The position numbers and the translations under genes are program-made. The notes beneath the pieces are model-generated. The model did no database searches, had not been told where the DNA came from, and worked only from the letters and a program-made list of their open reading frames with translations. From a virus (Duplodnaviria > Caudoviricetes), in IMG/VR virus record IMGVR_UViG_3300037470_000043, positions 1 to 26,315 of that record: a stretch of DNA of 26,315 nucleotides. The stretch is one strand, 5' to 3'. This document shows positions 1 through 25,719 of this stretch, in pieces (the stretch's first letter is position 1; every line of letters starts with the position of its first letter).

Positions 1-159
1 ACTCATGTCTTTGGCGTGATTATCCAAGACCTGGTTCAGCTCTGTCAAACACACGGAGCAGGATTAGTTATCGGAGCTTTTCTTGAAAGGAAGATTACAC
101 TTGAGCAGATGTGCAAGTTGAAGCTTCCTGAAAGGAGTAACAATGGCAACGATAAATGA
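1..159 (+). CDS. Hypothetical protein, 3' part (truncated by window start)
   Basis: Frame 1 is open from base 1 (THVFGVIIQDLVQLCQTHGAGLVIGAFLERK...) to TGA at 157-159 and overlaps the next start, as expected for coupled phage genes. Confidence 0.6.
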   Translation, partial: THVFGVIIQDLVQLCQTHGAGLVIGAFLERKITLEQMCKLKLPERSNNGNDK

Positions 160-415
160 TCTTACTACATCCATCACCGAGCTTCCTTTTGAACAGGCTA
201 TGTTAGTTATTCTTAACCGACGAAACGCCAGAAGAATAGCTTTAACGGAAGCACAGACAAAAAAAGCTGCAAAGGCTGAAGCTAAAGCCGCTAAAGAAAA
301 TAAAACTAAAGGGGCTAAAGCTAAGCCTAAACTCACTTCAACTGAACTTGCATCCGCTTTGTCTATAGAACAAAAACAACTCTTACTGGCAGAACTTCTC
401 GGAGGAAAGAAATGA
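143..415 (+). CDS. Small Lys/Ala-rich hypothetical protein, possibly nucleic-acid binding
   Basis: SD AAAGGAG upstream of the ATG. Basic low-complexity core KKAAKAEAKAAKENKTKGAKAKPK. Stop overlaps the next start (ATGA). Confidence 0.75.
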   Translation: MATINDLTTSITELPFEQAMLVILNRRNARRIALTEAQTKKAAKAEAKAAKENKTKGAKAKPKLTSTELASALSIEQKQLLLAELLGGKK

Positions 416-1830
416 CGACTTTTAGCGAACCTGTTAATACTCCTTTTACTATGGCCGAAGTTCCTTTGCATTTGATCGACAAAGGAACTCGTTACAGAGA
501 GGACTACGGTGATATTGACGAGCTTGCGGCGTCGATTCAAGAAAACGGATTGATCTGTCCTATCGCAATCAGTAATCATCCTGAGGCTGATAGTGCTTAT
601 CAGTACTTGCTCTGTGCCGGTGGGCGTAGATTTGCCGCGCACGAGAAACTCGAAGCCACGCACATTCCGGCGAATATCTATAACAGACAGCTAACCGAAA
701 TTGAACTCCGTACGATCGAACTGGAAGAGAACTTAAAGCGCAAAGATCTTCTCTGGGAAGAGAAGTGTACAATGCGTAAAAAGATTCACGATCTCAAACT
801 GCTTATTCACGGCCCGAAAACTTCTACTGCTGTAGATGCTCCTGGCCATTCAATCCGTGACACCGCTGCTCAGCTCGGCGTTAGTCACATGAGCGTTTCA
901 CGTGATCTTAAACTCGCTGAGACGATGCAGAAATTTCCTGAGATTGCATGGTCGAAGTGCAAGAACCAATCCGACGCCGAGAAGCTGGTTAAAAAGATCG
1001 AACAAACGTTCGTGAAAGAAGAACTAGCCAAACGCGTTGAGGCTTCGCTCGGCGGTAATGCTAATTTGAAAATTCGCAAACTGGCGGATGCTTATATTGT
1101 CAGAGATTTCTTTGACGTAGCGAAAGAAATTCCTGCCAATATGTACCAGTTTGTTGAGATAGATCCTCCGTATGCGATTGATTTAGTTAACGTTAAAAAG
1201 GACTACATCAATGACGGCTATAACGAAGTTCCTGCCGAAGACTACCCCGCATTCATGCAAAAAGTTTTCGCTGAATGCTATCGTGTCATGGCTGCTAACT
1301 CATGGGGCGTATGCTGGTTTGGGCCTGATCCTTGGTATTCTCATATTATTACCTGGCTTCGTGCTGCTGGTTTTAACGTATGCGGTATTCCTTGCGTGTG
1401 GATTAAGCCTTCTGGCCAGACCAAAAGTCCTAACACGCGCTTGGCTAATGCGTACGAATCGTTTTTCTACTTCGCCAAAGGACAGCCTGCGATAATTGGA
1501 GCGGGAAGGATTAACGTTTTTAATTACCCGCCCGTCCCGCATCAGTATAAAACGCATCCTACTGAACGCCCGGTTGAAATGATTCGTGACTTGTTAAAAA
1601 CCTTCACCATGCCTGGTTCGCATGTACTTGTACCTTTTGCTGGTTCCGGCGCTACATTAATTGCCGCAGCCCTTGAAAACATGATTCCATTAGGAACTGA
1701 TTTGACGTCTGGTTATCGTGATGGATACATCCTTAATCTGAAAAGGACTTTCGATAATGGACTTAAACAGCAAGAAACAAGCGCCGCTAACCGCGCAGCA
1801 GCCGTTGCCCTTCCGATCGTGCCCGGGTAA
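412..1830 (+). CDS. ParB/Spo0J N-terminal domain + HTH + N4-C/N6-A DNA methyltransferase (beta class) fusion
   Basis: ParB motifs: IDELAASIQENGLICPI, AGGRRFAA (GxRR arginine patch) and EENLKRKDL. HTH-like SIRDTAAQLGVSHMSVSRDL. MTase catalytic DPPY precedes HPTERP and SAM-binding VPFAGSG (beta order). SD GGAGG. Confidence 0.9.
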   Translation: MTTFSEPVNTPFTMAEVPLHLIDKGTRYREDYGDIDELAASIQENGLICPIAISNHPEADSAYQYLLCAGGRRFAAHEKLEATHIPANIYNRQLTEIELRTIELEENLKRKDLLWEEKCTMRKKIHDLKLLIHGPKTSTAVDAPGHSIRDTAAQLGVSHMSVSRDLKLAETMQKFPEIAWSKCKNQSDAEKLVKKIEQTFVKEELAKRVEASLGGNANLKIRKLADAYIVRDFFDVAKEIPANMYQFVEIDPPYAIDLVNVKKDYINDGYNEVPAEDYPAFMQKVFAECYRVMAANSWGVCWFGPDPWYSHIITWLRAAGFNVCGIPCVWIKPSGQTKSPNTRLANAYESFFYFAKGQPAIIGAGRINVFNYPPVPHQYKTHPTERPVEMIRDLLKTFTMPGSHVLVPFAGSGATLIAAALENMIPLGTDLTSGYRDGYILNLKRTFDNGLKQQETSAANRAAAVALPIVPG

Positions 1831-1945
1831 GGTTGAAGTTTACTCACGTGTTTGCGGCTTCTTTCGCCCTGTTCAGCAATGGAATCCTGGCAAGAAGGAG
1901 GAATTTTATGAGCGGCGTACATATGACGTTAGTAAAATCGGCTGA
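1757..1945 (+). CDS. Small NrdD C-terminal-like protein (class III RNR glycyl-radical loop)
   Basis: VEVYSRVCGFFRPVQQWNPGKKEEFYERRTY matches the NrdD C-terminal signature (RVxGY glycyl-radical motif, then RPVxxWNxGKxxEFxxR). SD-like AAAAGGA upstream. Confidence 0.85.
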   Translation: MDLNSKKQAPLTAQQPLPFRSCPGKVEVYSRVCGFFRPVQQWNPGKKEEFYERRTYDVSKIG

Positions 1946-2462
1946 AACTTATCGTCTTAGCAAAAAGCAGCAGCAATATTTTCTGAACATTGCTAAAGAA
2001 GTTGCTAAGGCCTCTTCCTGTCACTCTCGTAAAATCGGTGCAGTGTTGATTACGCAAAGTGGTCAGATTATTTCGACTGGGTATAACGGTCCTCCCCGAG
2101 GCGTTACACATTGCGGAACGGCCAGAGTTCCAAGAGATAAGGTTTTAAATAAACTGGCTGCGATACTTACTTACGAAGACTGTCCGCGGAGACTGTTGCA
2201 TTACGATTCAGGCCAAGGTTTACAAATCTGCCCTGCCGCCCATGCAGAACGTAATGCACTAATCCAAGCTGCGCGTCATGGGATTTCGACTGAGGCTACG
2301 ATCCTTTGTCTTACGTGTTGTATTCCGTGCAAAGATTGTCTAATCGAAATCATCAACGCAGGTGTGCGTACGGTTTATGTGACGTCACTTGAGCACTATG
2401 ACCTTCTTAGCGAGTATCTTATCGAGGAGTCAGGAATCCAGATTTTTCAATACGAAGAATAA
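1908..2462 (+). CDS. dCMP deaminase (ComEB/deoxycytidylate deaminase family)
   Basis: Motifs SSCHSRKIGAV, STGYNGPPRG, HAERNAL and PCKDC (Zn-binding HxE...PCxxC). Start moved from the track's TTG at 1833 to ATG 1908, which follows a strong SD (AAGGAGG). Confidence 0.92.
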   Translation: MSGVHMTLVKSAETYRLSKKQQQYFLNIAKEVAKASSCHSRKIGAVLITQSGQIISTGYNGPPRGVTHCGTARVPRDKVLNKLAAILTYEDCPRRLLHYDSGQGLQICPAAHAERNALIQAARHGISTEATILCLTCCIPCKDCLIEIINAGVRTVYVTSLEHYDLLSEYLIEESGIQIFQYEE

Positions 2463-2476
2463 CAAAGGACGTTATC

Positions 2477-4948
2477 ATGGCTACTTTAATCATACCTCCA
2501 GAAGGAGATCTACAGCAAGCTAAGTTCATCATTGTCGGCGAACAGCCAGGCATGGTGGAAGTACGCATGCTTAAACCGTTCGTAGGTCCTACTGGACGTG
2601 AGTTGAACGAAGACTTGCAGATGATAGGAATTGCGAGAGCGGATTGCTATCTGACGAACATAATTAAAGATTACGATCATCCGTTAGAGCATTACATTGA
2701 GTACAATTCGAAGACGAAACAAATATCCGTTACCCAAGGATTTAATGATTATGTTGAGCAGCTGTATAAAGAACTCGTACATTCCTCGGCCATCATCATT
2801 GCACTCGGCAATGTGGCAACTTACGCCCTTACAGGTAAGTGGGGAATTACGAAATGGCGGGGTAGTCGTCTGCCATCAACACTACTCCCTGGAAGGATTG
2901 TTTATCCGACATTTCATCCAGCAACAGTGTTACCTCCGAAGAATCAGTTTTTGAACAAGACTTTAATTCAATTCGATATCCAGAAAGCTAAAAAAGAAGC
3001 TGATGGATTGTACGTCCCTACGACGCGTGAGCTAATTACTTCACCTTCGTTTGACGATTGTTTAACGTTTCTATCCGAGTGTGAAACTAAAGGACTCGAA
3101 GGAGCCATGATTGACTATGACATTGAGATTTACGGGGAAGAGGTTAGTTGTATATCCTTTTCAGCTCCTCGTGAAATTCACACTGCTATGTCAATTCCGT
3201 TCTTTTCTGGAAGAGATTATTTCACACCTGAACAAGAAACACTTGTCTGGCTGAAGATCGCTGCGATACTTGAAAATCCGGCTATCATCAAACGAGGGCA
3301 GAACATAATCTTCGACACACATTTTCTGCTACGTAAATACGGAATCAAAGGCGTGAATTTTCATGATACTATGATAGCTCAACGTACGTTGATGACGGAA
3401 TTTCCCATCGGCTTAGATTTCATCACGTCCATCTACACCGATCAACCGTACTACAAAGAGGACGGTAAGCGAAACTTCGGGGGACAGAACTGGTATCAGC
3501 TCTGGGCCTATAACGCAACTGATTCGTTAATGTGTCAAGAAGCATTTCCGAAGCAGCTGGAAGAGCTACATAAGCTACACACTTATGAAGCCTACGATCG
3601 TCAACGTAAGTTAATCGAACCTTTGACTTACATGATGGAACGAGGCTTGCGTGTTGATATCGAAAAATTCCGTAAGCGGCGGCAAGAACTGGACATTGAA
3701 ATCGAAACAATAAAAGAGGAGCTTGATAAGGTAGCTGGGCAGCCGTTGAATGCAAACTCCCCGGTTCAGTTGGCTAAGTATTTCTACGGCACGCTCAACC
3801 AACACGCTTACAAGAGTCGTAAAACAGGCAACGTTACCACTGACGATCTTGCTATGAAACGCTTGGCGAGAAAAGGATTTAAAGCGGCTCAGTTAGTTCT
3901 CGAAATTCGCAGCCGGGTTAAGTTAGCTTCAACGTATCTGGCTGAATCAAAGCTCTCCGCTGATGGCAGGTTACGTTGTTCTTACAATCCTGTAGGCACA
4001 GTGTTTAGTCGTCTATCTTCAAGTGAGAATTTGTTTGGTGAGGGAATGAATCTTCAAAACATTCCTCACGAAATTCGAGATATGCTTCTAGCTGATGAAG
4101 ATTATCTTTGGTTTTCTTTCGACCTAGGCCAAGCAGAGAACCGCATCGTAGCTTACGTTGGCCGAATCGATCCAATGATTCGAGCCTTTGAAGAAGGCAA
4201 GGATGTACACAAATTAACTGCTTCATTGATCTTTAAAAAACCGCCAGAAGAAATTTCATCCGAACCAGGTTCCAGTACTCTTGGCGATGGTAAGCACTCA
4301 GAACGGGATTGGGGGAAACGGTCTAATCACGGATTGAACTATGACTTTGGTTATAAATCCTTTGCACTGCTTTATGAAATGGCTGAACGCGATGCTAAGT
4401 TTATCGTTGACTCATATCATAAAGTATATCCAGGAGTGCGGCAAGGCTTTCACACACACGTAAAACGTTCTTTACGTGAAAGCCGTACGTTGACGAATTT
4501 AATGGGACGGCGGACGTTGTTTCTCGGCCCGTTAATTGACGAGACGTTCAAACAAGCCTATGCTTGTATACCGCAAGGGACGGTAGGGGATGTGATTAAC
4601 GAACGTGGATTGGAGTATATTTATTATAACCAGTCCAAGTTTAGTTCACTTGAACTACTAACCCAAACCCACGACGATATCGGCTTTCAGATTCCAATAA
4701 AAGTCGGCTGGTTACACATGGCAAGGATGCTTTGGGATATCAAGCAATCGCTTGAAACGCCTTTACAAGTTCATGAATATAAATTCGTAATCCCCGCAGA
4801 CTTAACCATTGGGCTGAATATGGCTAAGCATCAAGGGAAAGAATTAAAACAAAAGAACTTTCCTAAATCCGTAGAAGAACTTGCTATACAACTTGAAACT
4901 ATCTACGCAGAATTAAGGACACATCATGGGCAAACGGGAGTTAACTGA
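2477..4948 (+). CDS. polA: Family A DNA polymerase with N-terminal uracil-DNA-glycosylase-like domain and 3'-5' exonuclease
   Basis: UDG family-4-like motifs GEQPG..E....PFVGPTG, YLTNIIK, ALGNVA and TFHPA. Exo I/II/III: YDIE, QNIIFD, YNATD. Pol motif A DLGQAENRIVA, motif B RDWGKRSNHGLNY, motif C THDD. SD AAAGGA. Confidence 0.95.
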   Translation: MATLIIPPEGDLQQAKFIIVGEQPGMVEVRMLKPFVGPTGRELNEDLQMIGIARADCYLTNIIKDYDHPLEHYIEYNSKTKQISVTQGFNDYVEQLYKELVHSSAIIIALGNVATYALTGKWGITKWRGSRLPSTLLPGRIVYPTFHPATVLPPKNQFLNKTLIQFDIQKAKKEADGLYVPTTRELITSPSFDDCLTFLSECETKGLEGAMIDYDIEIYGEEVSCISFSAPREIHTAMSIPFFSGRDYFTPEQETLVWLKIAAILENPAIIKRGQNIIFDTHFLLRKYGIKGVNFHDTMIAQRTLMTEFPIGLDFITSIYTDQPYYKEDGKRNFGGQNWYQLWAYNATDSLMCQEAFPKQLEELHKLHTYEAYDRQRKLIEPLTYMMERGLRVDIEKFRKRRQELDIEIETIKEELDKVAGQPLNANSPVQLAKYFYGTLNQHAYKSRKTGNVTTDDLAMKRLARKGFKAAQLVLEIRSRVKLASTYLAESKLSADGRLRCSYNPVGTVFSRLSSSENLFGEGMNLQNIPHEIRDMLLADEDYLWFSFDLGQAENRIVAYVGRIDPMIRAFEEGKDVHKLTASLIFKKPPEEISSEPGSSTLGDGKHSERDWGKRSNHGLNYDFGYKSFALLYEMAERDAKFIVDSYHKVYPGVRQGFHTHVKRSLRESRTLTNLMGRRTLFLGPLIDETFKQAYACIPQGTVGDVINERGLEYIYYNQSKFSSLELLTQTHDDIGFQIPIKVGWLHMARMLWDIKQSLETPLQVHEYKFVIPADLTIGLNMAKHQGKELKQKNFPKSVEELAIQLETIYAELRTHHGQTGVN

Positions 4949-6113
4949 TTGGATAGACGGCTATTTAGCCTATACCCATAATACAGAACCTCCTGACTCC
5001 TATCGCCTATGGTGTGGAATCTCAGTGTTAGCTTCTGTGTTGCAGCGAAAGTGTAAGCTACCTTGGGGTAGTCTAACCTTTTATCCTAACATGTACATTG
5101 TACTGGTTGGGCCAGCAGGGAAAGCTCGCAAGGGAACTGCTATGGCTCCAGCACAGAAGCTGCTAGAAGATTTAGACATCAAAATGGCTGCGGAGTCTAT
5201 GACACGTGAGTCGTTGATTAAATGTCTGGCAGAGACGAGTGAAAGTATTCAAGACGCAGAAGGAAAGATTACGTTCCACTCTTCGTTAACAATCTTCTCG
5301 CCGGAGTTGGTAGTCTTTCTCGGACAGAATAACCAGAACCTGTTAATGGATTTAACTGACTGGTATGATTGTCGGAATCGTTGGACGTATCGTACGAAGA
5401 ACATGGGGACTGACGAGATTACAGGGATCTATGTTAACTTAATCGGTGCCACAACGCCTGAGTTAATTCGATCTACCCTGCCGTTAGACGCCATTGGAGG
5501 TGGCTTAACTTCCCGAATGGTTTTTGTCTACGAGGAGAAGAAAGGAAAAATCGTAGCGGCTCCGATGCTTTCAAAAGAAGAGATGGAACTTCAAGCAACA
5601 CTGCGGAGAGACTTAGAACGGATCTACTTAATGCGTGGCGAATTCCGTGTGACGCAAGGATTTTTCGATAAATGGGTTGAGTGGTACACAGCCCAGGAAG
5701 ATAATCCACCCTTCGTCGATCCACGCTTTGCTGGATATATCGAACGTCGTCCGAATCATGTGATGAAGCTTTCGATGATTCTAAACGCCAGCAGAACAAG
5801 TACCATGATTATAGATAAAACTGACATTGACAGAGCTATAAAAATCTTAACTTTCACTGAACGCAAAATGACGAATACGTTTAGTGGCGTAGGTAAGTCC
5901 AACAACGCTGACGTTATCAGTCGCGTTATGTCTGAGATCGCGATAAGAAAACAAATCACGTTCTCGCAGTTGTTAGAACTGTTTTATTTTGATGCGGATA
6001 AACGCGTGTTGACAGGGATAGTTGAGACGCTGAAAGAAATGAAATTCATTAACACGATTCAGAAGGCGAATGAGTTAATACTTTGTTACTTAGACAAGCC
6101 ACCGGCAGAATAA
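4926..6113 (+). CDS. DUF3987/YfjI-like P-loop AAA+ protein, putative replicative helicase
   Basis: YPNMYIVLVGPAGKARKGTA (Walker A variant), LTIFSPEL (Walker B region), NLIGATTP, GLTSRM (arginine finger), and a helical C-terminus. Overlaps the end of the polymerase gene. Confidence 0.72.
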   Translation: MGKRELTDWIDGYLAYTHNTEPPDSYRLWCGISVLASVLQRKCKLPWGSLTFYPNMYIVLVGPAGKARKGTAMAPAQKLLEDLDIKMAAESMTRESLIKCLAETSESIQDAEGKITFHSSLTIFSPELVVFLGQNNQNLLMDLTDWYDCRNRWTYRTKNMGTDEITGIYVNLIGATTPELIRSTLPLDAIGGGLTSRMVFVYEEKKGKIVAAPMLSKEEMELQATLRRDLERIYLMRGEFRVTQGFFDKWVEWYTAQEDNPPFVDPRFAGYIERRPNHVMKLSMILNASRTSTMIIDKTDIDRAIKILTFTERKMTNTFSGVGKSNNADVISRVMSEIAIRKQITFSQLLELFYFDADKRVLTGIVETLKEMKFINTIQKANELILCYLDKPPAE

Positions 6114-6116
6114 CTT

Positions 6117-6323
6117 AGCCCGACTTCTTGAACTGTTAACACACTAACCAAGAAAGGAGAAGAACAGTTCTGCGTAAAGCAACAAGAGGCTATCGTCGTT
6201 GTCCGGGTAAGTTTCGTTCGTTGAAAACTTCGCTAGGCAGCGCTAACCTTTTCGAACTTTGCGACCCAAAACTAAATACCTCCTAAGACGGTGTAATTGT
6301 AGGATGGAAGTCGGGCTTTTTTT
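6117..6323 (+). ncRNA. Candidate structured RNA or ssDNA element (~200 nt)
   Basis: Perfect 11-bp terminal inverted repeat AGCCCGACTTC (6117-6127) / GAAGTCGGGCT (6307-6317), followed by a T-run. Internal stems GAACTGTT/AACAGTTC, GGGT/ACCC, GTTCG/CGAAC, CGCT/AGCG and TCCTA/TAGGA. No long ORF. Confidence 0.5.
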
Positions 6324-6326
6324 AAC

Positions 6327-6349
6327 CTGTGGAAAAAATTGTTACATAG
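6327..6349. repeat. 23-bp palindromic motif, copy 1
   Basis: CTGTGGAAAA AAT TGTTACATAG, directly next to the terminator. Confidence 0.85.
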
Positions 6350-6389
6350 AAAGGGCTAGTTAGAAATTAATCTAACTAGCCCTTTTTTT
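6350..6389. terminator. Intrinsic terminator between convergent operons, probably bidirectional
   Basis: 15-bp stem AAAGGGCTAGTTAGA / TCTAACTAGCCCTTT with loop AATTAA. T7 tract on the + strand and TTTCT on the - strand. Confidence 0.9.
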
Positions 6390-9300: not shown

Positions 9301-10970
9301 GACATAGCTTTTTTCAGGTTGCTTGTGTCAATGTCGAAATCATCATCTAGAAAATCATCATCAACTAACTCCGGCTCAGGCGTAACTTTCTGAGCAGCAC
9401 GATAACGATCTCCTACTTTGATCAGCTCAAGCTGACCGCCAGCTAAGTCCGCACGAGAGCCCGCAGATTTAAGAAAGTTCTGCGCAGAAGTTACGTCACT
9501 AAACTTTCGAGGATTCAATTGGTAGTTCTCAGCCTTCGCTAAAGCTTCGTCCGTGAACGTCGGAACTGCTTTCACGTCAGCAATTTGTTGTTCGAATTCT
9601 TTGAGTTTAGTTAAAGCATTTTCAGCTCCGTTTTTCTTTTCTTGCGGAATGCGTACAGTTTTGCCGTTTGAAAGTTTAGCTTTCCAAAACTGCTCTCCAT
9701 TTTTAGTCATCAAATCAGCGCCGAGAGCTTCAAGCTCTGCGTCGACACCTTGCAAGGGAGGCTCTGAAAGTTCAACAGGTTCAATGGGTTGAGCAGCAAC
9801 AGGCTCCTGTGGAACAAATTGTTCCATAGGTACAGCAGGTTTCTCAGTCATCCCAAGCTGAATCGGTGCGCCAGCAGGGAGTTCGTTCATGGCCGGAACC
9901 TGCCGAGGCGGCTTAGGCGCAGGAAGGCCTAATGGTTGACCGGGTACAGGAGGCGCTACAGCAGATTCCGCTGTCGGAACCTCAGCAGATGCAAACAGCC
10001 CTTGGGCTTCAGCAGCCTCCGCTAACTCAACGGCATACGCGTCAAGGGCTAGTGAGTCTGATTTAGGATACGCGGCTTTAACGGCTTCAACAGAGCCTAA
10101 TTCAGCTACACGGTTTAACACATTAGCCTGTTGTTTTTTCGTCAGGCTTGTCGTTGTAGGTTTAGCCGTTGGTGTCACTGGTTCAACAGGAGCCACCGGA
10201 CTAGCTGCTTTGGCAGGTTCCACAGGGGCAGCTGGCGCACTCCCCGGTTTCGAAACTTCTACAGCATTCCGCATCGCTGCAGCTTCTGTTTTATACGCAG
10301 GATATTTTCTAAGCAATTCTCCCTGGCTTATTCCAGGATTTGCTTTTTGTACCTGCTCCCAGGAAGGTAGCGTCATTCCACGCTCAGGAATCCGAGCCAT
10401 TCGTACAGGGGTAGAATTCCAAACTCGCTTAACACCGCCGCCAACAAGCATCGGAACTCCGACGTCCACAGCTGCAACTGTACTTGCGGCAAGTCCCGGA
10501 CTGCCTGTAAGATCTTGAACTAAATTCCCTAACGGCTTTGCTGCGTATTTATCCAGCCACTCGAAAGGCTTAGCGGTCATCTCAGACGTAAACGCCCCAG
10601 CCTTCGTTTGTGGCCCAGTCCGTTCTGCAACGAATTGTTGAATAGTCTGAATATTTCGTTCAGCTAATTCAGTATTAGCTTTCGTTGGAGGTGGATCTCC
10701 AGGCTTCCAGCCTTCAGGCGTAGTCCCGCTGAACAAGCTACCGAGTCCAACTAACCCTGAAGCAGCCATCGTCGGCATAGCCGCAGCAAAGTCTCGCGTA
10801 GGTGCAGTATAAGCGTCGATGCCTGCACCAAGAAAGTCAGCATAGGCACCGACGCCTTTTTTAATCTTCTGTCCAGTGGAGTAGATTTTATTAGGCGTTT
10901 CATCAACTAGAGGCTTTGACGCAGCTTCACCTGAGGATAGATCAGTAAGGTTATAGTTAATAATAGCCAT
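6393..10970 (-). CDS. Large internal virion / DNA ejection protein (positional analogue of P22 gp16 or T7 gp16)
   Basis: 1525 aa and the last gene of the morphogenesis operon. Pro/Ala-rich N-terminal linker, acidic patches, helical C-terminal half with a hydrophobic helix (LLRYTLMVGAVTALF) and a basic tail. Function inferred from position and composition. Confidence 0.65.
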   Translation of the reverse strand: MAIINYNLTDLSSGEAASKPLVDETPNKIYSTGQKIKKGVGAYADFLGAGIDAYTAPTRDFAAAMPTMAASGLVGLGSLFSGTTPEGWKPGDPPPTKANTELAERNIQTIQQFVAERTGPQTKAGAFTSEMTAKPFEWLDKYAAKPLGNLVQDLTGSPGLAASTVAAVDVGVPMLVGGGVKRVWNSTPVRMARIPERGMTLPSWEQVQKANPGISQGELLRKYPAYKTEAAAMRNAVEVSKPGSAPAAPVEPAKAASPVAPVEPVTPTAKPTTTSLTKKQQANVLNRVAELGSVEAVKAAYPKSDSLALDAYAVELAEAAEAQGLFASAEVPTAESAVAPPVPGQPLGLPAPKPPRQVPAMNELPAGAPIQLGMTEKPAVPMEQFVPQEPVAAQPIEPVELSEPPLQGVDAELEALGADLMTKNGEQFWKAKLSNGKTVRIPQEKKNGAENALTKLKEFEQQIADVKAVPTFTDEALAKAENYQLNPRKFSDVTSAQNFLKSAGSRADLAGGQLELIKVGDRYRAAQKVTPEPELVDDDFLDDDFDIDTSNLKKAMSEYEEGARTYDTKALANKPSSQVMAKAPEPVMAELTMKQSQATRRDAIKAAAEKTKTKKQLTPEEEIQQILDSDPDAYDPEMQSWEELKQLDQEKDYYDQVEEIEGRLGRTVRDLTDLFSDERGALGKDVSKLKRSLKEVAAELNAAKRKVIHLGYDETTAAAEAIGEGQQKVKAAAASGDVTEIPQVVEELTTVKEVLKDVAGKAKVKKDMKKAEEKTVKKVKLSEAEAAYYANLIKQQMEIDLDRAFNPSVSPIKDLVDYMKSIDRIVPKYKQGSFEVPKRQKPAIPKDSPEMLDPSKDLMRIGSGRASTTSGHLLTPSFALRKFFKPGTSLIIDAMESTMALGTNIRNTQRWAKDTFGKLPSATQAIEQTLGKLYEETRKGLDKSDQLKAEVGQHSVRRKDAEKMVKLNERRLANTHAAHPKIPIYKAELVKAQMAVAKYKAQATAAGKRYKNLRKATMENLVNKYDKMIVPLAEKNPRVRVALAAAGKLPKGISLSPAEAMLAEKATEYFEATATRMRELGLPTKEDGAYITHSFGEIATDKWAKAFKYVPSVPIKLKFASQVPYSRVWLPDINQLLDHYIPTVERKLAFQPLLDRWSDFIEYQAPPNMREMMQDWLKSNLYKEHGGLVNKVVNGVVNAEYVRLVGLSLSTAAKHASKLLDTFGVNTMSATMQGMYQTSKLPLQATAKMLGMKGDTPELDLFKAYVSMDQIVRVLDETPGLKSSWSLVKALSGSLTTTTEMLDNGVTIMATTIASANAKLTVDQARALVLDSILKANFRGGVDQPLYMKNPAGRLLGMFQTTVQKTFELRASLLKDQWTGGKDAFGKSKRNRLLRYTLMVGAVTALFRSEGKDILHWFTEAPYMRDWLHGTKEFPYYATAMPKTAASPPVQLLTEMNQKGVLEGAKEHFDYTPIVKYLTMQDNDYPNKYYDTPTDQIFGLRKLDAGHAKKQSGRARIKSRKRPKR
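9807..9829. repeat. 23-bp palindromic motif, copy 2 (intragenic)
   Basis: CTGTGGAACA AAT TGTTCCATAG, encoding PMEQFVPQ within the 1525-aa ORF. Confidence 0.88.
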
Positions 10971-11846: not shown

Positions 11847-12456
11847 ACCAGGGGCGGGGTGGATTGAAGTAATTGCCCAGGGATCGTTGAGCTGTAGGAG
11901 GATTAACCCCTCCTTGATATCCTTCCGGAACACCTTCAACGGACTGCGGGAACTGAGGAACACCAGGAGGAGGAGGCCCGGTGCCGCCGCTAGCCCCAGT
12001 CCCCGCAGCTTTGTTAACATCTCGTGTGTTGCCTTTGATACTATAGCCATCGCCAGTAAGGGTCATACTGGTAGGACCCGCAACTCCCGCAGCAGTGAAA
12101 TCACCTATGCCAGGTACACCTAGATTCGGCGCTTGCTGATTGTTGTAGACGTTGGGATTGTTAAGCGTCCCACGCAAAGCGTCCAACATGCTCTGCCGTT
12201 CCACTTGCTGCGCTTTAGTGGCTTTATTTGCTAAGCTACTCTGCGCCATGAAAGTTCCGATCCCAGCCATAGGATTATTAGGAGCTAATCCACGGCCGAT
12301 CGAATCCGCGATGATAGAGAATTTTTCAGGATTCTGCTGTAACCAGTTATTAGCCTGGCTAAACATATTCCCAAAGCTAAATCCTGCAGCCGGTTGAGCT
12401 GGCGTAGGACTAGCATTAGGAGGAAGTGCAAACTCTTGTCCTGGAGTTATAGCCAT
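11845..12456 (-). CDS. Putative ejection / internal virion protein (Gly/Pro/Asn-rich)
   Basis: SD AAGGAG. Low-complexity composition, positioned between the pilot protein and the large ejection protein. Confidence 0.65.
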   Translation of the reverse strand: MAITPGQEFALPPNASPTPAQPAAGFSFGNMFSQANNWLQQNPEKFSIIADSIGRGLAPNNPMAGIGTFMAQSSLANKATKAQQVERQSMLDALRGTLNNPNVYNNQQAPNLGVPGIGDFTAAGVAGPTSMTLTGDGYSIKGNTRDVNKAAGTGASGGTGPPPPGVPQFPQSVEGVPEGYQGGVNPPTAQRSLGNYFNPPRPW

Positions 12457-13415: not shown

Positions 13416-13438
13416 CTTTGGAACAAATTGTTCCATAG
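13416..13438. repeat. 23-bp palindromic motif, copy 3
   Basis: CTTTGGAACA AAT TGTTCCATAG. It fills most of the intergenic gap and overlaps the SD of the pilot gene. Confidence 0.9.
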
Positions 13439-15472: not shown

Positions 15473-15495
15473 CTATGTAACAAATTGTTACATAG
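15473..15495. repeat. 23-bp palindromic motif, copy 4 (perfect arms)
   Basis: CTATGTAACA AAT TGTTACATAG, intergenic. Confidence 0.92.
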
Positions 15496-19254: not shown

Positions 19255-19277
19255 CTATGGAACAATTTGTTACATAG
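19255..19277. repeat. 23-bp palindromic motif, copy 5
   Basis: CTATGGAACA ATT TGTTACATAG, lying between the post-capsid hairpin and the adaptor SD (TAGGAG). Confidence 0.9.
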
Positions 19278-21992: not shown

Positions 21993-22245
21993 ACTCAGCC
22001 TCCATGGTTAGAATATTTATAATAGTATCCGGAAGCTGCATTAAATCGCGCGCGGAGCGAATACAGCCTCGAATAACAGCGGTCTCAACATCACTCAAAC
22101 TTGGGTCTTCTAAATTATGATGCGCGTTACTAATCCAAAGCTCCATTTCCTGCAGCATATCTTGCCAGAGCAACGAGTCCTTAAACTGCTCAAACTGCCC
22201 CCGAGTGCAGCGATACCCCGTCTTCTTTGGAACATTTTGTTCCAT
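21952..22245 (-). CDS. Small head-assembly-region protein
   Basis: 97-aa helical ORF between portal and scaffold, a common podovirus position. Its ATG lies inside palindrome copy 6. Confidence 0.65.
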   Translation of the reverse strand: MEQNVPKKTGYRCTRGQFEQFKDSLLWQDMLQEMELWISNAHHNLEDPSLSDVETAVIRGCIRSARDLMQLPDTIINILTMEAEYDSDGDVEKTEES

Positions 22246-22247
22246 AG
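22225..22247. repeat. 23-bp palindromic motif, copy 6
   Basis: CTTTGGAACA TTT TGTTCCATAG, immediately after the portal stop codon. Confidence 0.9.
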
Positions 22248-24198: not shown

Positions 24199-24221
24199 CT
24201 ATGTAACAATTTGTTCCACAG
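24199..24221. repeat. 23-bp palindromic motif, copy 7
   Basis: CTATGTAACA ATT TGTTCCACAG, between TerL and portal. Confidence 0.9.
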
Positions 24222-24233
24222 GTAAATTAAAAA

Positions 24234-24853
24234 CTATATTCGATGACAACTGGTTTGATCAAACGCCGGCTCATTCTCAAGCTCAGCGTATTCATCCGCA
24301 CCGTCAGGTAAGTCAACAGGGTCAAAATAAATCGCTTCCTTTTCCATTACCTTCACAATATAAGCTGCCGCATCCATTACGTCAAACTTACGAGCACGTG
24401 GAAAAGTTAAGAGCTGTTGTTCTAGCTTTTGACAAATCGCAGGGTTATGGTAGATGTAACCTTGACGATAAAACGGGGCTAGCCAAGCAATCCGTTCTTC
24501 TTTTTTTCCTGTCGCATTTAACTCAAGCAAAAGCGGAAAGATTCCACGCTTACGCATTTCGTTTTTAATCGGCTGAACAATAAATTCGTGAAGCGATGTT
24601 ACTTCAATCGCTAAGATCGTAGCCTTAAGCCTCACAACCATTGCGAACATTTCATCGTAAAGCTGATCAGGGTAGAATCGATCTGCCACGCAATCACGAA
24701 AATACATTCGCTTCGAAGTTCGATCAATTCCCCAACCGACTATAGCTGAGTCAGCTGAATGTAGCTCAACTGTCTTAGCCGGATCGACGATTACCACGTT
24801 GGTTAATATCGGCTTTTGCTTTGTATTAGCAGCCAACAAGCTCGACTTCATCA
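24234..24853 (-). CDS. terL: Terminase large subunit, C-terminal RNase H-like nuclease domain (+1 frame relative to the ATPase part)
   Basis: Acidic catalytic motifs VVIVDPA, DSAIVGWG, LAIEV, KKEERI and FPRARKFDVMDAAAY. The start is uncertain. Confidence 0.85.
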
Positions 24854-25719
24854 TAGTATTTAAACATCTCTTGTTTAAACGTGGCTGTTTCTGTTGAGAT
24901 CGGAATGTTACGATACTCACGATAAAACACGTCCAGCTGACCACGACGCTTGAAAGACTCATAAAGCTTTCGAACTTCTTCATCAGTCATAAAATCAGGC
25001 CACTTTGATTTCAAGTCATCGTCGCAGATTTCAAGCCGTACTGAGGCCCAATCAGGATCTTCAAGAAGATTCACCAAAAGCGAATCTTCGTGCAGGACGG
25101 TGCCTATTACGATAATCCGCCAGTTCTTCGAACTACGATCTACGCAGTTACAAAGATCGGCAAAGAACCAATCCTTGAGCTTCTGACGCGAATCAGGATT
25201 CATTACTGATTCAGCATCTTCCAAGTCATCGACGATGATTAAATCAGGTCGATTATTACCGAACAACATCCCGCGAACCTGCTGACCTGCGCCTCTCGGC
25301 AGAACCATCGTGCCAGTGGTAGTAATCCAACAATCCTTCGAAAACGTATCAGACTTCATCGGTCCGAAAAGTTTTACGATTTGAGGATTAGTAAGCAATT
25401 CGCGCTTTAAGTTCTCCCCTTGGGCAACGGCGTTTGTTGCAGTAGCAGAAACAGGTACAATGAATTTCTTCTCCTGAAACAGAATCCGTTTAGCGGGGTG
25501 AGTGATCGTGTTAATCGTAGTCTTCCCAAACCCGCGTGGCGCTGCGATAGCCACGCGTTGTTTAGAATCATCATCAAGAAGTTTAAAAATCTCATCGTGC
25601 AAAGTAGAGAACGGATTATAAAACCGCTCAGGAAATAATACCTTGCCGCAGACTTTAGTGCTCAAAGAACACGCAGCCATGATACGTTTTAATTCAGGCG
25701 TTTTAATCAGTTCAGACAT
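24826..25719 (-). CDS. terL: Terminase large subunit, N-terminal ATPase domain
   Basis: Walker A APRGFGKTT, GAGQQVRG, Walker B LIIVDDLED, coupling motif VIGTVLHED, and FYREYRNIP. Confidence 0.9.
   Translation of the reverse strand: MSELIKTPELKRIMAACSLSTKVCGKVLFPERFYNPFSTLHDEIFKLLDDDSKQRVAIAAPRGFGKTTINTITHPAKRILFQEKKFIVPVSATATNAVAQGENLKRELLTNPQIVKLFGPMKSDTFSKDCWITTTGTMVLPRGAGQQVRGMLFGNNRPDLIIVDDLEDAESVMNPDSRQKLKDWFFADLCNCVDRSSKNWRIIVIGTVLHEDSLLVNLLEDPDWASVRLEICDDDLKSKWPDFMTDEEVRKLYESFKRRGQLDVFYREYRNIPISTETATFKQEMFKYYDEVELVGC

Follow-up and report, generated by a model that had tools for sequence, protein, structure and literature searches.

KorB of plasmid RK2, with its OB operators, shares with the phage protein considered here a ParB-family domain for NTP binding together with a helix-turn-helix (HTH). 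The palindromic sites of KorB often lie far from promoters, with a sliding reach of about 1.5 kb, and KorB, which KorA locks, acts as a repressor and in partition, whereas the phage protein carries a methyltransferase (PMC11790492). Furthermore, a counterpart of ParA or KorA was not identified in the phage, and the sites diversify between phages. Noc with NBS and ParB with parS give the best structural and sequence matches of the N-terminal part, in the same helix register. His159 of the phage protein sits at the specificity position R173 of ParB, and co-evolution of residue and base is common to both (PMC7383237). ParB and Noc sites are 16 bp long (PMC7383237; PMC8367383), while the phage sites span 23 bp with an A/T-rich centre. 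Other differences from Noc and ParB are about 16 residues inserted ahead of the HTH, Gly for E102 in 83% of the homologues, Arg for Q58, and a lytic-type phage genome.

The domain fusion itself is already known: fusions of a ParB-CTPase and an N6_N4-methyltransferase are in print and are enriched in phages (PMC12704722). What we did not find described is their cognate sites. The passages on these fusions in PMC12704722 and PMC4738411 give neither a target site nor a mechanism, and in the literature searched, mostly open-access, no description of cognate dispersed sites or of sliding methylation was found for ParB-methyltransferases. ParB-Tls loci adjoin the terminase (PMC4738411), whereas the present gene lies in the replication module. 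In M.SsoII and M.Ecl18kI, too, the methyltransferase has an N-terminal domain of its own for DNA binding, reading a palindrome of similar centre; an enzyme of this type is, however, a C5 enzyme of a restriction-modification system, with one operator, which inhibits methylation, and with no ParB NTP domain (PMC6100179). In ParB-dependent phage T-dioxygenases, a phage ParB fold is likewise coupled to a DNA-modifying enzyme, but there, as far as that report describes it, ParB is a separate protein with no obvious DNA-binding domain and no loading sites, and its NTP residues are non-essential (PMC13229309).

Organization of the gene and its product

The window, that is the whole stretch of 26,315 nucleotides analysed here, is an entire IMG/VR record and represents part of a podophage with a polymerase, an SU10-like portal and a capsid. 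The ParB-HTH-methyltransferase gene (412..1830, + strand), a core gene of the podophage family, encodes 472 aa. Its ParB NTP-binding domain covers residues 15–112 (454..747, +), and residues 29–108 match Pfam ParB_N (PF02195) above the cut-off (E 4e-9). Box II reads GGRR (residues 70–73) where the canonical form is GERR, and ENLKRKDL follows at 106–113. The HTH is placed at residues 146–169 (847..918, +), with the recognition helix starting from 158/159. The methyltransferase domain (1084..1746, +) matches N6_N4_Mtase (E 6e-20) and has DPPY at 1162–1173 (residues 251–254) ahead of FAGSG at 1636–1650 (residues 409–413), the beta-class order. An AlphaFold2 model with mean pLDDT of 91.5 has helices at 148–155 and 159–174 and, after the HTH, a long helix at 186–212 leading to the methyltransferase; in Foldseek searches its N-part matched Noc, ParB and KorB, and its C-part CcrM, M.RsrI and MboIIA. 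Profiles, motifs, model and fold matches thus confirm the first-pass annotation, which had read this protein as ParB GxRR and ENxxRxDL motifs and an HTH fused to a beta-class amino-methyltransferase. A central HTH that reads a palindromic site is predicted from the model, the Spo0J register and the covariation described below.

In the methyltransferase domain, D251, P253, Y254, G411, S412 and G413 are invariant among the 118 homologues, and the enzyme is therefore predicted to be catalytically active. A canonical C-terminal dimerisation domain is not evident in the 472-aa protein. The score for NCBIfam parB_part (47.8 bits) is under the cut-off of 58.45, no ParA was found among the 26 window proteins scanned, and the window has dispersed sites and no parS-like 16-mer within three mismatches, where a ParABS system has a cognate ParA and clustered parS. 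We therefore do not classify the system as ParABS; it would work as a site-loaded ParB of the Noc/KorB type carrying an enzyme.

Just upstream of the gene lie an RHH gene and f7, a small conserved gene for 90 aa (143..415, +) which overlaps the methyltransferase start, has no family match and is present in 61 of 64 genomes. f7 is a possible candidate for a partner or clamp lock of the methyltransferase. Elsewhere in the window, a family A polymerase whose N-terminal part is a uracil-DNA glycosylase domain (2477–4948, +) adjoins a dCMP deaminase, and the terminase large subunit (24234–25719, −) appears as two overlapping ORFs of 297 and 249 aa; it is a single ORF of about 506 aa in relatives, so that the split reflects a frameshift or an assembly error.

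Palindromes in the window and in related phages

Seven copies of a 23-bp palindrome with the consensus CTRTGKAACA-WWW-TGTTMCAYAG, each with 0–1 mismatch, are found between 6327 and 24221, and none of 100 shuffled windows had any copy. The first (6327..6349) is located between the convergent early and late arms, beside a separate terminator-like hairpin (6348–6387); the second (9807..9829) is within a 1525-aa virion gene; the third (13416..13438) is in a short junction and abuts the ribosome-binding site of the next gene; the fourth (15473..15495) is at a gene junction; the fifth (19255..19277) is in the gap between capsid and adaptor genes; the sixth (22225..22247) overlaps the start codon of the gene that follows the portal; and the seventh (24199..24221) is at the start of the portal gene. 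The seventh palindrome scores 29.3 and the next best site in the window 12.9. A site every 3 kb or so, as first proposed, is what the gaps of 1974–3782 bp between 6327 and 24221 amount to, but it does not extend to bases 1–6326, where no site is present, the methyltransferase gene itself included.

For comparison, 265 homologues came from a protein search, and 118 of the 120 listed among them were aligned. IMG/VR scans covered 80 loci each, the best of 509 with the gene and the best of 533 with the capsid; longer contigs were completed to full length, L008 and L204 excepted. An exact-pattern scan of viral contigs gave 20 stretches, mostly single chance matches, and contributed G041, G044 and G048. 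The methyltransferase gene occurs in 19 of 24 capsid-selected records, and in 12 of 12 of those at least 90% complete. Among gene-bearing relatives, 53 of 54 have their own palindrome family; de novo discovery found 5–24 copies of a 23–25-bp palindrome in 51 of the 54, near-duplicates included, and the same pipeline gave 1–4 copies on 20 shuffled genomes. G062 has the same helix as G059, and cross-scanning with its matrix gave eleven sites in G059; in G032, 14 of 15 cross-scan matches were kept. G029 and G032 have even-length sites, with a spacer one base longer and one base shorter than in the usual odd-centred form.

The geometry of these families is conserved while their sequence differs between phages: CTWTGTTCAAA is the half-site met most often, while GGGGA, TTTAA or GTCCC stand in others. 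The parS likeness of the window's palindrome is therefore incidental, and the half-site resemblance to a swapped parS in the first-pass annotation, being one variant among many, carries no weight as evidence; the literal swapped-parS pattern has no match with two mismatches allowed. A conserved insertion ahead of the HTH (window 811–846, residues 134–145), which Spo0J does not have, tracks in its type the outer base pair of the site (16/1/1/46), an association confounded with one clade. G041 is without this insertion, and the outer flank of its sites is poorly conserved.

Gene and sites mostly occur together. In G063 (L231, L265 and L266), the methyltransferase gene is missing in place and no palindrome family is present in 38.1 kb, although the terminase small subunit, RHH, f23, primase and virion genes are retained; f7 and the polymerase are missing as well, and this is a single case of co-loss. 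From its ORFs, G063 combines the common virion module with a different replication module having a DnaB-like helicase, an SSB and an exonuclease. G041 has another virion module, yet it carries the window's inner half-site together with Arg164, and its 31.6 kb have no match to terminase small subunit, RHH, f23 or primase. A weak ParB-like match (E 6e-4 to 9e-6) also lies at 12043–12219 (+) of G041, inside a 1644-aa virion protein. In G070 (L163 and L272) the gene is intact, yet no site family is detectable in 25.3 kb, and Microcystis phage Mel-JY34 (L282, 11543–12838) has a 26% identical ParB-HTH-methyltransferase in the same gene order and no palindrome family.

Layout of the sites along the genomes

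The sites are spread more evenly than chance predicts. The gaps have a coefficient of variation of 0.48, where random junctions give 0.97; all 32 of 32 genomes fall under the null mean, 27 of them at p<0.05. Across relatives the median gap is 3,235 bp, the median of the largest gaps 6.7 kb and the maximum 11.5 kb. By mechanical ORF calls, 261 of 404 sites are at tandem junctions and 84 within ORFs; another 29 are convergent and 24 divergent, and 6 stand at edges. Conserved genes contain only 8 sites in 462 kb, while of the 46 genes longer than 3.9 kb 34 have a site inside them, in all cases in the 5′ half and in mixed frames. Because of the mixed frames, internal start codons were rejected as the cause; tolerance of the 5′ region of giant genes may contribute.

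Sites with perfect symmetry reach only about a third of the number that half-sites paired at random would give (32 of 694 against 102.6 ± 7.8), although score thresholds may add to this deficit. The deficit is seen at every position of the 694 sites, and the outer positions are partly biased by transcription direction. Selection against hairpins or cruciforms is possibly behind it. Among mismatches on the transcribed strand, G.U is rarer than A.C (152 vs 265), which together with the deficit in arm pairing argues against an RNA stem; an RNA hairpin or terminator was rejected. Likewise, a sigma-70 promoter or operator was rejected, there being no −10 or −35 signal at a fixed offset from the sites. 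The layout, the mixed frames and the avoidance of perfect palindromes thus point to a site in double-stranded DNA more than to an RNA stem or a promoter. Late-gene control, one of the functions first suggested, fits poorly with the sites of relatives, which occupy both arms of the genome, convergent ends and the interior of the giant virion gene.

Covariation of helix residues and bases

For the question of which protein reads the sites, 6,275 columns with 24,626 residue states in 23 gene families were scanned position by position in 64 phages, blind to the protein. The 64 genomes are de-duplicated at 90% from 74 with motifs; the sites of six of them come from cross-scanning, one of these having only 3 sites. 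Of all columns, the best predictor of G6 is His159 (12/2/3/47; p 1e-8, runner-up 2e-5), that of G8 is Asp158 (6/0/2/56) and that of C9 is Arg164 (4/0/0/60). Among 31 base traits, only these three independent ones (C9 with its complement A9) peak in the recognition helix, and the top matches of the rest, outside the helix, are clade markers or at background level. In 400 runs with traits simulated on the tree, 0, 13 and 4 reached the observed p-values for G6, G8 and C9, and 0, 0 and 2 had their top match in the recognition helix. In independent pairs, His159 and G6 changed in the same direction in 8 of 11, with 0 opposite and 3 unchanged (p 0.008); Arg164 gave 3/0/0 and Asp158 about 2.5/0/0.5, with three origins and p 0.25 each.

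The His rule was derived on the first 31 genomes, and all five His carriers among the 33 later ones had G6. Two genomes are exceptions (G035 and G041), and the three non-His genomes with G6 carry Arg at 159; His and Arg grouped post hoc give 10/0/2. Out of sample, the Desulfofustis phage MD01 from GenBank, whose helix reads SKS..RD, fits all three rules with nine sites having C9, T6 and no G8. MD02, intended as another such case, is an unrelated phage without sites and hence provides no test. Further post hoc rules, Met160-A7, Lys160-G7 and Asp/Asn159-A5, have 1–3 origins only and are not significant. Contacts of His with G, Arg with G and Asp with C are standard recognition chemistry. In a weak stretch of 2.3 bits, but in register, residues 158, 159 and 164 align with A-R..N of Spo0J and thereby with S172, R173 and N178 of ParB, which contact parS (PMC7383237).

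An earlier distance-based scan, replaced by the position-by-position one, gave a different picture, and both results stand. Its partial-Mantel windows in 31 genomes, dominated by one large clade, left the helix outside the top 40 of 6,204 windows and ranked a loop of the ParB-methyltransferase fifth, and its whole-gene partial r was 0.52 for terminase small subunit, 0.47 for primase and 0.24 for ParB-methyltransferase. These correlations speak for another reader, such as terminase small subunit, RHH, f23, primase or a host factor, or for an RNA hairpin, with the covariation due to shared ancestry. So does the unrelated phage G048 (L095, L151 and L152), which has six GGTGTCACA-TWR-TGTGACACC sites in its early half, an HTH_3 gene and no ParB domain; its palindromes are probably ordinary operators, and proteins other than a ParB-methyltransferase can thus give palindromes of similar geometry. 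However, in the 37 genomes with terminase small subunit the His159-G6 match is perfect (9/0/0/28, p 8e-9), against 3.5e-4 for the best terminase column, and terminase small subunit, RHH, f23, primase and f7 are all weaker on the three traits. G063 keeps the candidate genes without sites, G041 has sites without a match to them, and the hairpin version meets the pairing deficit and G.U rarity already given. We regard this explanation as very improbable.

Since three helix residues covary with the evenly spread palindromes, docking of the protein there is very likely: with high confidence, from comparative data, the HTH of the ParB-methyltransferase binds the phage palindromes directly, as a dimer. 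The link between protein and site, which the first-pass annotation called speculative, has thereby gained strong comparative support from covariation, the co-loss case and even spacing, and the co-variation of motif and HTH across related phages that it proposed to look for is seen in His159-G6, Asp158-G8 and Arg164-C9.

NTP pocket, proposed clamp and methylation

The ParB pocket is nearly invariant in the 118 homologues: R27 and R29 are conserved at 99%, and G70, R72, R73, E103, E106, N107 and R110 at 100%. Mutations at seven residues of Caulobacter ParB weaken CTP binding (PMC8367383), and all seven have conserved counterparts here (89–100%). Among the Box I, II and III residues, the counterparts of R60, S74, G79, R103, R104, E135, N136 and R139 are conserved at 89–100%. 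Position 71, counterpart of the hydrolytic E102, is Gly in 83%, and the Q58 counterpart is Arg in 99%. ParB with E102A binds CTP without hydrolysis and stays clamped longer (PMC8367383), so that a long-lived clamp is predicted for the phage protein. The distance of 1.5 kb that KorB clamps reach from their own site (PMC11790492) is about half of the median palindrome gap.

The mechanism that we propose begins with the HTH, which very likely binds the evenly spread palindromes as a dimer. There the ParB domain would close into a nucleotide-gated clamp, slide a few kilobases along the phage DNA and let the enzyme methylate a short motif on the phage's own DNA. A possible purpose, weakly indicated, would be to mark progeny DNA against a specific host system while the host chromosome is left unmethylated. 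We have moderate confidence in NTP-dependent loading and spreading; the whole explanation, nucleotide-gated sliding with site-loaded and cis-biased methylation, has in our judgement an even chance of being right.

Persistent restriction-site avoidance argues against a blanket anti-restriction role: GATC, CATG, CTAG, CGCG and 6-mer palindromes are still avoided, to the same degree as in G063 (−0.47 vs −0.48), and self-targeted anti-restriction as first suggested is weakened in that general form. Word-bias statistics gave no methylation target motif, and the available part of a methylome study of the habitat of MD01 has nothing on the MD01 phage (PMC9296519).

Alternative explanations

A clamp like that of KorB, VirB or Noc may instead coat the genome for long-range transcription control or for DNA organisation in replication or packaging, with the methyltransferase as passenger, as dimerisation module or acting in trans. 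The same evidence of binding and spacing would serve for it, KorB offers a precedent of dispersed sites with a clamp-locking partner (PMC11790492), f7 and the RHH gene lie just upstream, and restriction sites remain avoided. Against it, the residues for catalysis and SAM binding do not vary among the 118 homologues, identity to the query is higher in the methyltransferase domain (53%) than in the ParB part (46%), and most of the best 150 matches to the N-terminal part alone are fusion-length proteins. We regard this reading as unlikely. Less probable still is a static system like M.SsoII, in which the methyltransferase doubles as a transcription factor and does not slide, even though the 15-bp palindromic operator of M.SsoII has the same central ACA-AAT-TGT (PMC6100179), a word like a ribosome-binding site stands just downstream of 272 of the 422 oriented sites, and in 27 of 49 genomes the gene is preceded by a site no more than 1.2 kb upstream. 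Sites at convergent ends (29 of 404) or inside ORFs (84 of 404), over-dispersed spacing, near-invariant NTP-binding residues and the lack of −10/−35 signals at fixed offset are hard to reconcile with it, and the late region has no more promoter-like matches than chance would give (29 vs 26.7). Moreover, the 5–24 dispersed sites per genome and the amino-methyltransferase differ from the M.SsoII type, a C5 enzyme with a single operator in the promoter region of its restriction-modification locus.

Tethering would be another way to methylate in cis: the sites would bias the enzyme by local concentration or looping, and the ParB domain would be a dimerisation scaffold without a gate. Two purified ParB-N6N4 fusions, one bacterial and one from a phage, were outside the 11 NTP binders of a DNA-free assay (PMC12704722, Dataset S5), a status read from the text of that report and its list of control mutants, and mutations of NTP residues did not abolish function of phage 5mYOX-associated ParBs (PMC13229309). 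In addition, the covarying residues seem to map 3–6 bp out from the dyad and the beginning of the helix to point outward, an arrangement apparently different from that of ParB on parS. Conservation of R72, R73, E106, N107 and R110 at 100% is, however, not expected of a vestigial pocket, and the Box I loop GLIxP resembles that of published CTP binders (PMC12704722, Dataset S6), though its authors found no reliable rule and nucleotide choice of ParB-type proteins is not predictable from sequence (PMC12704722). Tethering is thus also rather improbable, and site-loaded, nucleotide-gated sliding is the reading followed below.

Implications

ParB-methyltransferase fusions are common in phages and so far unexplained. 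One large family of them now has putative cognate DNA sites and a three-residue recognition rule, so that binding, nucleotide gating and methylation in cis can be tested directly; cognate DNA was absent from the earlier NTP assays on such fusions. If sliding methylation is true, the roles of CTP clamps, so far segregation and gene control, would come to include the delivery of an enzyme, and orthogonal protein–site pairs would become available for region-targeted marking of DNA. Tentatively, and with somewhat less than even confidence, we suggest that these lytic-type podophages use a self-addressed methylase, a CTP-gated and slowly hydrolysing ParB clamp that loads only at private palindromes and slides to methylate that genome alone, the palindromes diversifying fast and being spaced to cover the whole genome. 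If so, a DNA-modifying enzyme would be aimed by the identity of the genome and not by its target motif, through a residue–base code that can be read.
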